From IMG/VR virus record IMGVR_UViG_2671180556_000011: DNA of 4,747 nt, one strand, 5' to 3'. The DNA comes from a virus (lineage: Duplodnaviria > Heunggongvirae > Uroviricota > Caudoviricetes). Positions 1 through 3,000 of this stretch are shown piece by piece. Within the stretch, counting starts at the first letter, position 1, and every line of letters begins with the position of its first letter. The position numbers are program-made.

Positions 1-3000
1 AGTACGAGGTTCACTATGGCTCGCATCGAACAGGAAGTGATGATTTTGTCTGGGGGGAGTAACAGTCGTTTAACCCCAGAATAATCCCGTAACTGAGGTC
101 GCTATTGGCGGCCTTTTTTGTATCCGCGCCACGCCCGGCGCATATCAACCACAGAGCCTTTCGGGGGTGAGCTTACGGAGTGGTCAGTGTGACTTTCTCT
201 GTGGGCAGATCGCTCCCGGGCGTTGGCTCACCCACCCAAAGGAACGTCACGATGTTTGGTATTTTTGGTAAAAAAGCCCGCCGAGCGGCAGTGGAAATTA
301 AAAAGTTTGAGAAACGTGATCTGGCACAGGCGGTTATTAATGCTGCCTATCTGGTGGCCTATGCAGATGGTGAATGTGAGGCTTCAGAGAAAGTGAAGAT
401 CGAGCAGGTCTTGCGTAACCAGCCTGCGTTGTCCGCGTTTACGTCAGAAATTAATGCGATTAGCGCAACCATTATCGGTCAGCTGGATACGAACTTTAAA
501 ATTGGTCGTCGAGCGGCATTGCGTGAAATTGAAGATGTGAAACACGATACGCGTGAAGCGGAAGATGTGCTGGATGTGGCGGTGGCCATTGCGGAGGCAG
601 ACGGCGAAATTGAGCCGGAAGAGCGCAAGGTGCTGGAAGAGATTGCCGGTGTTCTGGGTCTTCGTCTGGAGAATCACCAGTGACGGTAAAACTGCGCCTG
701 GCTGTGGCTGCACTCCTGCTGTTTCTGGTGGTGATGGTGGACTTCAGCAGCCGGATAATGTCAGTGCTGGCTGACGGTGTGCTGGTGGCGGGTGTGGTGG
801 TTGTTGCTTTCCCGTTGCTGAAAAAGAAAGCATCAGGCGATTAGCAGGGTATCAGTTACCCGTTGAAATTTTTAAATGCCTCACAATTCAGGCGGTTGAC
901 TGTTGTCTGGTTTGCGGGGAGTTTGTTAAAAGAAACTGGCATGGTGAATCCCCCTGTGCGGAGGGGCAATCAGCAACTGGTGTTTTGTCACCGACCCTTA
1001 TCCTTTCTGTGCGGGTTCAGGTGCTGATACTGAACTCACCGGGAGGCACCCGGCACCATGCAATGGCACATAGCGCCACTCTCCAGCCCCTCTCCGGAGG
1101 GGCTGTTTATATTGATTTTGTCAGATGTGAGTAAACTCCTTATGGACTTTGTTGTTTTAGTCCATAAGGACATATTTGCAGAGTGCAACGGTTATTAAAG
1201 CATTCATTCAATACGTTATCTGTATTTGTAGGGCATTCCTGGCTGTTTTTGATTAAATTCCAGAATTTTTTATTGAATGGTACTACGTTGTAAATGGTTA
1301 CAGGTAGCACTTTGTTATTGAGCATGATACCTGTGTGAGTCAGTGTAAATATACTTTCAGGAGGTAAGAAAGCATCCGATTGATACCAGATTATTAATTT
1401 TATTTTACTCCATATGACTGAAAAAGATATTCCGCATGATGGCTGGATAACTGTATCAATCACAATCCACTTCATTTAGTTTCCTTGTTTATGTCTTGCT
1501 GGTGATGTTCTGAAAAGTATAAATGATATTTTTGAATGTAAACCATAGAGCAGAATTATTTTTCTGATGTTGTTTATTGTTTATTTAAATGCAGGGTGGT
1601 TTATATCTCGTCTTGTAGTTTACCCATGCATATCTGCTTGATGATGAGGTTTTTATTTAAGGTATGGTTTTGTGTTTTTTCTGTATTACATGTCAGGTAT
1701 TTTAAAGAATTATTTTTCAGATGGTGGAAAGAACCATGGCATTTAAACACTATGATGTTGTCAGGGCGGCATCGCCGTCAGACCTTGCGAAACGACTGAC
1801 ACAAAAACTGAAGGAGGGGTGGCAGCCATTTGGCAGTCCGGTGGCCATCACGCCCTATACCCTGATGCAGGCCATTGCGGCGGAAGGTGATGTCACCACA
1901 CCTGTGGTGGTGAAGCCGTCGGATGGAGAAGGCGCAGTTATCAGCACCACCAGCAACCCGGAGTATTACTTTGTTGTTGCCCTGGCCGGGCAGTCAAACG
2001 GTATGGCGTATGGTGAAGGGCTTCCGCTGCCGGAGACATATGACCGTCCGGACCCGCGTATTAAACAGCTGGCGCGTCGCAGCACTGTCACGCCGGGTGG
2101 TGCGTCCTGTAACTACAATGACATTATTCCTGCGGACCACTGCCTGCATGATGTTCAGGATTTGAGTAAGTTTTCACACCCGAAAGCCAGCGCAGCTCAG
2201 TATGGATGCGTGGGGCAGGGATTACATATCGCGAAGAAATTGTTGCCGTTTATTCCGGCGAATGCCGGTATTCTTCTGGTTCCGTGCTGCCGTGGTGGTT
2301 CTGCATTTTTGGCGGGCGATGAAGGTACCTTCAGCGAATCCACCGGCGCAAGCGAGACCTCGGCACGCTGGGGTGTAGATAAGCCACTGTACAAGGACCT
2401 GCTTACCCGTACTCAGGCCGCACTGAAGGCTAACCCTAAAAATATTCTGCTTGCAGTGGTCTGGATGCAGGGCGAGTTTGATTTGAAACAGGGTGCATAC
2501 GCCACTCAGCCGGGGCTGTTTGATTCCATGGTGGAAAAATATCGTTCTGACCTGTCGGAATTCGGAGGTCAGTGTCTCGGGGGCTCTCCGTCATCGGTTC
2601 CCTGGATTTGTGGCGACACGACCTACTACTGGAAGCAGACTTATTCTTCGCAATACGATGCGGTGTATGGTGCATACAAGACGAAATCCGCAAAAAAAAT
2701 CTTCTTTGTGCCGTTTATGACGGATGAAAACGGGCGAAATGTGGGTACCAACGAGCCGTCAGAAGATCCGGATGTTGCGGATATTGGGTATTACGGAGCC
2801 GGTGGTCGAACGGACGCCAAAACCTGGACGACGGCCGACCGTAAAACGCATTTTGGATCATGGGCACGTCGTGGGATTATTTCCGACCGTCTGGCAACGG
2901 CGATTCTTGTGCATGCCGGGAGAACCGCTGAATTCATTACCGGAAAACAGCCTGATACGGTGAAGCCCACCGGACCTTCCGGTGAAGGTACGGAGAGAGA

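Follow-up and report, generated by a model that had tools for sequence, protein, structure and literature searches.

An ordinary copy of the STnc100 small RNA gene in the moron site of a lambdoid prophage late operon

In eight prophages of Escherichia coli Sakai, convergent pairs of Hfq-bound small RNAs (sRNAs) lie between the moron coding sequence and a conserved downstream open reading frame (ORF) (Tree et al. 2014, PMC4104026), and one of these pairs, EcOnc27 with AsxR, follows stx2B (PMC4104026). EcOnc27/sRNA103 was detected by Northern blot and by crosslinking and analysis of cDNA with Hfq (Hfq-CRAC) (PMC7873438), and its overexpression raises the levels of the fimZ and espA transcripts (PMC7873438, PMC12711010). 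In strain EDL933, 11 copies of the related STnc100 are transcribed, one of which, STnc100_4, has been verified by Northern blot (PMC5331693), and RpoD signal in chromatin immunoprecipitation with exonuclease treatment (ChIP-exo) has been reported for the promoters of Salmonella STnc100 (PMC10794520). PasD1 and PasD2 of enteropathogenic E. coli (EPEC) E2348/69 are abundant RNAs, detected on Northern blots and with targets identified by RIL-seq, in which interacting RNAs are ligated and sequenced (Pearl Mizrahi et al. 2021, PMC8550237); a common ancestor has been proposed for PasD and STnc100 (bioRxiv 10.64898/2026.05.13.724894). Relatives interact with virulence mRNAs (PMC8550237), and single-nucleotide polymorphisms in the copy downstream of stx2 are among the features predictive of haemolytic uraemic syndrome in O157 (PMC12711010). 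Here we analysed a stretch of 4,747 nucleotides (nt) from the Caudoviricetes record IMGVR_UViG_2671180556_000011 of IMG/VR (hereafter the window), which contains a hairpin-rich segment at 845-1115. This segment is an ordinary copy of STnc100, a family already catalogued in lambdoid and Shiga-toxin prophages, and is nothing new. Window 873-1114 (+) forms a complete, self-contained STnc100-family sRNA gene, located within the late operon of a lambdoid prophage at the moron site, and we put the probability that the element is a transcribed gene of this family at about 80%.

Scanning the window against Rfam, as had been suggested in a preliminary description that saw in 845-1115 either a structured 3′ untranslated region (3′UTR) or a small RNA ending in an intrinsic terminator, returned a full-length match to STnc100 (RF02076). 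Window 910-1114 (+) covers model positions 1-206 of 206; its score is 137.6 bits (gathering score 47) and its E value 2.5e-31. A covariance model of our own, R1, scored 177.9 bits over 939-1115, on the + strand only. The multi-arm junction is only superficially cloverleaf-like, and a tRNA-like reading was rejected after ARAGORN reported 0 genes and Rfam no tRNA match in the window. A scan of genome contigs with the 16-mer GCACCCGGCACCATGC gave chance matches only, in unrelated GC-rich genomes, and contigs L123-L242 were set aside.

We collected homologs from IMG/VR by a 15-mer (92 distinct 300-nt stretches), together with copies in annotated phages. RNAalifold, applied to 43 homologs aligned with MAFFT, independently recovered five helices: a long-range closing helix (H1), the hairpins H2, H5 and H6, and the terminator (Table 1). 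All five stem-loops of the preliminary description are present in the window, and four of them are conserved helices of the family. The GGGTA/TACCC hairpin at 847-861 is not part of the element: in homologs with DUF3927 upstream its 3′ arm becomes TAGCG, TATCT or CATGC, uncompensated, and for this lack of conservation we rejected the hairpin as part of the RNA. H1, which that description had missed, is part of the STnc100 model.

The pairing is supported by covariation. In a MAFFT alignment of 26 homologs that was not fitted to any structure, 96.8% of cells in the five helices were paired, compared with 37-52% when the 3′ partners were slid; six pairs changed on both sides, and 0 of 500 shuffles reached the observed values. 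With the covariance model built from this alignment we identified 124 copies across 99 sources, some of them weak, divergent and lacking the 15-mer. Among 75 distinct homologs aligned to the model, 97.3% of cells pair and compensatory changes occur in 29 of the 35 pairs; this alignment is fitted to the model and hence leans towards the structure, and the MAFFT-based result points in the same direction. Both sides change in six of the eight pairs of H1 (99.8% of cells paired), in all five pairs of H2 among divergent copies (the PasD counterpart reads CCUCC/GGAGG) and in all nine pairs of the terminator, and compensatory changes affect eight of eight pairs in H5, for example G-C (n=33) versus A-U (n=36). 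H6 is nearly invariant in sequence, and the distant copy of E. coli K-12 has CCUGG/CCAGG in its place, a compensatory change. Conserved G-U pairs in H1 and H5 fit the + strand only. Compensatory changes across related prophages, on which the preliminary description had staked its proposal, are thus present. In the fold, an 8-bp closing helix surrounds H2, H5 and H6 together with a variable arm; beyond it come a segment that is variable and single-stranded and, last, the intrinsic terminator.

Folding energy contributes little to this conclusion. The z-scores were -2.9 for 845-1115 (+) and -2.5 for 910-1114 (+), and the minus strand gave -2.45; thermodynamics alone is only modestly unusual, is not strand-specific, and shows neither function nor strand. 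What decides the matter is the Rfam match together with the covariation. The same two results exclude chance hairpins. A small protein encoded here is likewise scarcely credible. The + strand ORFs 863-1027 and 985-1134, of 54 and 49 amino acids, do exist, and ribosome footprints have been seen on some EDL933 copies of STnc100 (PMC5331693). Neither ORF has a Pfam match, however, and the homologs, whose lengths vary from 124 to 190 nt without 3-nt periodicity and which carry unrelated cassettes, show no frame conservation.

Table 1 Coordinates of the STnc100-family element, its parts and the neighbouring genes in the window
Feature	Position	Strand	Basis or remark
STnc100-family sRNA, about 175 nt (predicted, +1 near G939 to end of U-tract)	939-1114	+	RF02076, R1, PasD2 start
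Upstream block travelling with the sRNA gene	873-932	+	Anchored upstream sequences, 55 distinct homologs
Closing helix H1, 5′ strand, GCAUGGUG	939-946	+	Pairs with 1054-1061; found independently by RNAalifold
Hairpin H2, CCCCU-GUGCGG-AGGGG (CCCCT/AGGGG)	951-966	+	Rfam, RNAalifold, covariation
Variable cassette B, allele-specific internal hairpin; window allele B0	967-1012	+	About 19 unrelated alleles, 75 distinct homologs
Hairpin H5, GGGUUCAG-loop-CUGAACUC (holds GTTCAG/CTGAAC)	1013-1037	+	RNAalifold, covariation
Hairpin H6, CCGGG-AGGCA-CCCGG	1039-1053	+	Immediately next to the H1 3′ strand
Closing helix H1, 3′ strand, CACCAUGC	1054-1061	+	RNAalifold, covariation
Variable cassette D, AAUGGCACAUAGCGCCACUCUC; window allele D0	1062-1083	+	About 24 unrelated alleles, 75 distinct homologs
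Intrinsic terminator hairpin (1084-1105) and interrupted U-tract (1106-1114)	1084-1114	+	Terminator scan, Rfam model positions 170-206
TerB	252-683		Pfam/NCBIfam
DUF3927	680-844	+	Pfam/NCBIfam; stop 95 nt upstream of G939
IraM	1140-1475	-	NF007393, 162 bits
DUF1737-SASA-DUF6645 esterase, NanS-p type	1721-3697		Pfam/NCBIfam
DUF1378, DUF826 and P21-type holin (further window genes)			Pfam/NCBIfam

Conservation of the unit begins at about 873-881 rather than at the stop codon (844), and this left boundary is the same whether tRNA-Arg, stx2B or DUF3927 lies upstream. The block that precedes the RNA comprises TCACAATTCAG (881-891), TTGACT (895-900), a -35-like TTGTCT (903-908), an 18-nt variable spacer and an extended -10-like TGtTAAAAG (924-932). 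When the 55 homologs are anchored on the GCAUGG start, TCACAATTCAG and GTTGAC come first, followed by either TTGTCTG or TTGCCTG; a spacer that varies leads to TTTGTTAAAA, and 6-7 variable nt separate this from the RNA. In divergent copies, different -10-like hexamers (TATATT) stand at equal distance, and the positions of the hexamers are conserved while the spacer varies. The start of PasD2 estimated by RNA-seq, NC_011601:741157 (table S6, PMC8550237), aligns exactly to window G939. The sequence suggests a promoter with its -35 at 903-908 and an extended -10 at 924-932, from which an RNA of about 175 nt would run, and since the PasD2 5′ end aligns to G939, the transcribed part is probably limited to about 939-1112 of the segment first described. 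TTGACT was rejected as the -35 element: its spacing to the conserved TTAAAA block, about 25-26 nt, is too long, and the hexamer 17 nt downstream, GAGTTT, is poor. The TCACAATTCAG-N4-TTGAC block (881-900), located 40-58 nt before the putative start, is kept in most family members whatever lies upstream and could be a regulator site or an upstream-promoter (UP)-like element.

These features bear on whether the RNA is instead cut, for example by RNase E, from the terB-DUF3927 moron transcript or from the PR′ late transcript. The DUF3927 stop is only 95 nt away, upstream of the element and on its strand, and no strong terminator intervenes; the -10-like element is non-canonical; and the distant copies in K-12 Qin and in contig L090 lack the usual upstream block and sit inside the dicF-dicB transcript, all of which would suit a 3′UTR-derived RNA. 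However, the promoter-like block accompanies the element irrespective of what precedes it, every copy in the tandem arrays (2-4 copies) has an upstream block, and by annotation PasD1 and PasD2 are intergenic sRNAs, with an RNA-seq start at the aligned G. Because the block travels with the element and the PasD2 5′ end aligns to G939, we consider an origin from a 3′UTR less likely than a stand-alone gene and, taken by itself, rather improbable. The alternative of a small RNA ending in an intrinsic terminator, as the preliminary description had put it, is supported as a stand-alone gene by the full-length Rfam match, the covarying helices and the experimentally detected syntenic relatives.

The terminator reads CAGCCCCUC-UCCG-GAGGGGCUG followed by TTTATATTG in the RNA, with nine pairs, seven of them G-C, and a loop of 4 nt. 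In DNA form the terminator scan, which called four sites in the window against 1.8 expected, reports it as CAGCCCCTC-TCCG-GAGGGGCTG followed by TTTATATTGA. Its sequence, GCCCCUCUCCGGAGGGGC, is nearly invariant across most alleles. Q-dependent read-through during lytic growth is established lambdoid biology. The element might serve mainly as a cis-acting terminator or insulator that, in the lysogen, halts moron and read-through transcription ahead of the esterase and lysis genes, and the RNA would then be a by-product; this reading agrees with its constant position between moron and late genes and with the near-invariance of the terminator, and is compatible with Q-dependent read-through. We regard this as unlikely to be its main role, as a terminator can do without its own promoter and without about 120 nt of covarying multi-helix domain before it, and relatives accumulate as abundant Hfq-crosslinked RNAs with target chimeras (PMC4104026, PMC8550237). 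Insulation can moreover coexist with sRNA function and need not replace it.

The motif CGGAGGGGC is doubled, occurring in the 3′ arm of H2 (959-967) and in the 3′ arm of the terminator (1095-1103). The H2 3′ arm could alternatively pair with the terminator 5′ arm, GCCCCUC; this pairing is absent from PasD and is probably incidental. With its architecture of closed multi-helix domain, linker and terminator, the element also resembles a transcriptional riboswitch, and it could be conceived as a riboswitch-like or attenuator leader controlling read-through into the esterase, with the core as aptamer, 1084-1105 as expression platform and the CGGAGGGGC repeat as the means by which the H2 3′ arm would reach the terminator. 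This is very improbable. What lies downstream varies, from a convergent iraM in the window and a convergent AsxR in 933W to a further STnc100 copy in the arrays and a minus-strand ORF at PasD1, and the PasD terminator is unrelated and lacks the alternative pairing. The only riboswitch family listed in the Rfam scan of the window, SAM/SAH, matches at 3704-3754, outside the element, with 14.8 bits against a gathering score of 40. We rejected the riboswitch because of the inconsistent downstream context and because PasD is without the CGGAGGGGC repeat.

Conservation is unevenly distributed along the family. The nearly invariant parts are the H1 5′ strand with H2, the stretch that begins with H5, includes H6 and ends with the H1 3′ strand, and usually also the terminator; between them lie cassette B, in a part of the alignments rich in insertions and deletions, and cassette D. 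D0 is the commonest cassette D allele, and the window combines it with B0. The alleles reassort, since B0/D0, B0/D1, B4/D0 and B4/D1 all occur. Within cassette D, ACUCU(C) is predicted to be single-stranded from unpaired probabilities, and the published seed of PasD1 and PasD2, the complement of a CUCACA target motif, falls at the position of cassette D. By analogy with PasD, cassette D would be the seed region.

We suggest that, in lysogens, transcription starts from the gene's own σ70-type promoter near G939 and ends at about 1112, which would yield an RNA of about 175 nt. Like PasD and EcOnc27, this RNA may associate with Hfq, and it could base-pair in trans with host or prophage mRNAs through 1062-1083, with ACUCUC exposed, while the invariant core would act as a scaffold for stability or for the chaperone. 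In a secondary role, the terminator would act as an insulator in the lysogen, keeping moron transcription out of the esterase and lysis genes; in lytic growth, RNA polymerase modified by Q would pass through it. We give this particular combination of seed and Hfq mechanism roughly even odds.

Several points weigh against a conventional trans-acting sRNA transcribed from its own promoter. The -10-like TAAAAG has no T at -7 and the site is not called by a simple sigma-70 scan; the 5′ end could arise by processing of a longer transcript instead; and the Rfam model begins at 910, 29 nt upstream of the putative start. The U-tract is interrupted (UGUUUAUAUUG), so that the terminator is probably of limited strength. 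Compared with a typical Hfq sRNA, the pattern of conservation is reversed, with an invariant core and a hypervariable presumed seed, and the seed is placed solely through the likeness to PasD. We found no convincing target for cassettes B and D with RNAduplex among the translation-initiation regions of the window (seven genes, eight start sites), where all energies fell within about 2.5 standard deviations of the means for shuffled seeds. Dependence on Hfq is not clear-cut because pasD1 and pasD2 levels hardly change in a Δhfq strain (DESeq2 log2 fold changes of -0.18 and 0.55; PMC8550237). For the family as a whole, function has been established no further than the effects of overexpression, and the expression, ends, Hfq binding and targets of the window allele are predicted from its relatives.

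The nearly invariant four-helix core (939-966 and 1011-1061) may be more than a scaffold and form a functional RNA domain of its own, for example as a platform for a protein or chaperone or as a processing module, which we consider possible though unlikely. The core would then be a portable chassis on which phages swap unrelated B and D cassettes by recombination, and this would explain both the reversed conservation and the distant core copy inside the K-12 Qin dicF-dicB transcript. The reversed conservation and that sub-threshold copy downstream of dicF are the only unusual aspects of the family member described here, and they leave some room for a function of the core.

The K-12 Qin copy lies just downstream of dicF and overlaps the dicB start (contig L249, 13456-13628 (+), about NC_000913 1649455-1649627). 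It scores 38.2 bits with R1 and 34.4 bits with Rfam, against the gathering score of 47, contains GGUGAAU and UCACCUGGAGGCACCAGGCAC, the latter with the compensatory change in H6, and is without the usual promoter block, which makes it a second genomic context for the core. A similar sub-threshold core downstream of dicF is present in L090 at 4195-4367 (-).

The locus is a lambdoid prophage late operon in which terB and DUF3927 fill the moron site. The order is terB, DUF3927, the sRNA and a convergent iraM, and the sRNA is upstream of the NanS-type esterase and the holin. In 933W and other Stx2 phages the homolog lies 46-75 nt after stx2B, as it also follows stx2B in phage 2851; it comes directly after tRNA genes in phi296, about 500 nt after Q in PhiR5_1 and after DUF3927 in E2348/69. 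In all the prophages compared, the element is upstream of a SASA/NanS esterase or a holin. One IMG/VR contig, L073, is identical to the window over 840-1139; L073 also carries tRNA genes, about 520-765 nt before the position that corresponds to the window start. The 176-nt core occurs in 2935 of 5426 complete E. coli genomes (about 54%), at 8453 places and up to 12 times per genome, and 299 phage records, mostly of Stx-converting phages, have homologs. A practical point is that, despite this frequency, RefSeq annotates nothing beneath the match in the eight rows shown. The family is of some medical interest, mechanism being established for no member, and its cassette structure offers a handle for testing how phages diversify the target specificity of sRNAs.

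Copies also occur in tandem arrays, in which 2-4 family members about 230-480 nt apart each have an upstream block of their own and different cassettes (L006 2265-3380 (-), L019 7404-8062 (-), L009, L018, L066, L075, L077, L105, L107, L117 and L121); the middle copies are often strongly diverged (31-47 bits). On the other side of the element, IraM, the anti-adaptor that protects RpoS from RssB, is convergent with the sRNA, in the place where other prophages have an anti-sRNA. The 3′ end of iraM has a hairpin at 1141-1169 and no clear terminator, and its transcript may run antisense into STnc100. Further away, window 3699-3815 (-) is probably a second sRNA gene, of Esr41 type, between the esterase stop at 3697 and DUF1378 and convergent with the esterase. 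It has a -35-like TTGACA, the core UCUCCAUUGGG and a terminator GCCAGC...GCUGGCGGCUUUUUUU (3699-3730); Rfam Esr41 matches it with only 18.4 bits against a gathering score of 102, and the counterpart in E2348/69 PP4, which aligns to it, scores 32.3 bits. Esr41, PasA and PasC occupy this position in prophages of enterohaemorrhagic E. coli and EPEC. A terminator-like hairpin with a T-run (GAGGTCGCTATTGGCGGCCTTTTTTG) lies at 95-115, after a small ORF that ends at 62 and before terB.

Among described systems, lambda 6S RNA and StxS are likewise small terminated RNAs of the lambdoid late region, and StxS binds Hfq (PMC7873438). They run from PR′, immediately behind Q, to tR′, which places them upstream of the tRNAs and the moron, whereas the window element is downstream of the moron and has a promoter-like block of its own. 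AsxR and AgvB (RF02703 and RF02702) share the intergenic region at the moron site and in several prophages are paired convergently with STnc100-type RNAs (PMC4104026), but they lie on the opposite strand, measure 51-60 nt and are unrelated in sequence. Neither is among the Rfam matches listed for the window at E values up to 10; for comparison, AsxR scores 88.1 bits in 933W, convergent immediately after STnc100. PasD1 and PasD2 of E2348/69 resemble the window element in synteny (DUF3927, sRNA, SASA esterase/holin), in promoter spacing, in the 5′ start GCAUGGUGAAUCC and in length (172-173 nt versus about 175), and they keep H2 and H5 through compensatory changes. They match the STnc100 model with 41.4 and 37.7 bits, below the gathering score, their cassette D and terminator are unrelated, and their CUCACA-pairing seed is absent from the window. 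We rejected an assignment of the window sRNA to PasD itself, as only the 5′ core and H5/H6 align; it is a sibling of PasD. With STnc100/EcOnc27/sRNA103 of 933W and Sp5, the window has in common the closing helix, H2, H5, H6 and the terminator architecture, as well as the position between the moron and a NanS-type esterase and the promoter-like block upstream. The 933W copy differs in its B and D alleles and in its terminator, and scores 207.7 bits versus 137.6 in the window; its opposite-strand partner is AsxR where the window has iraM, and its moron is stx2AB where the window has terB and DUF3927.

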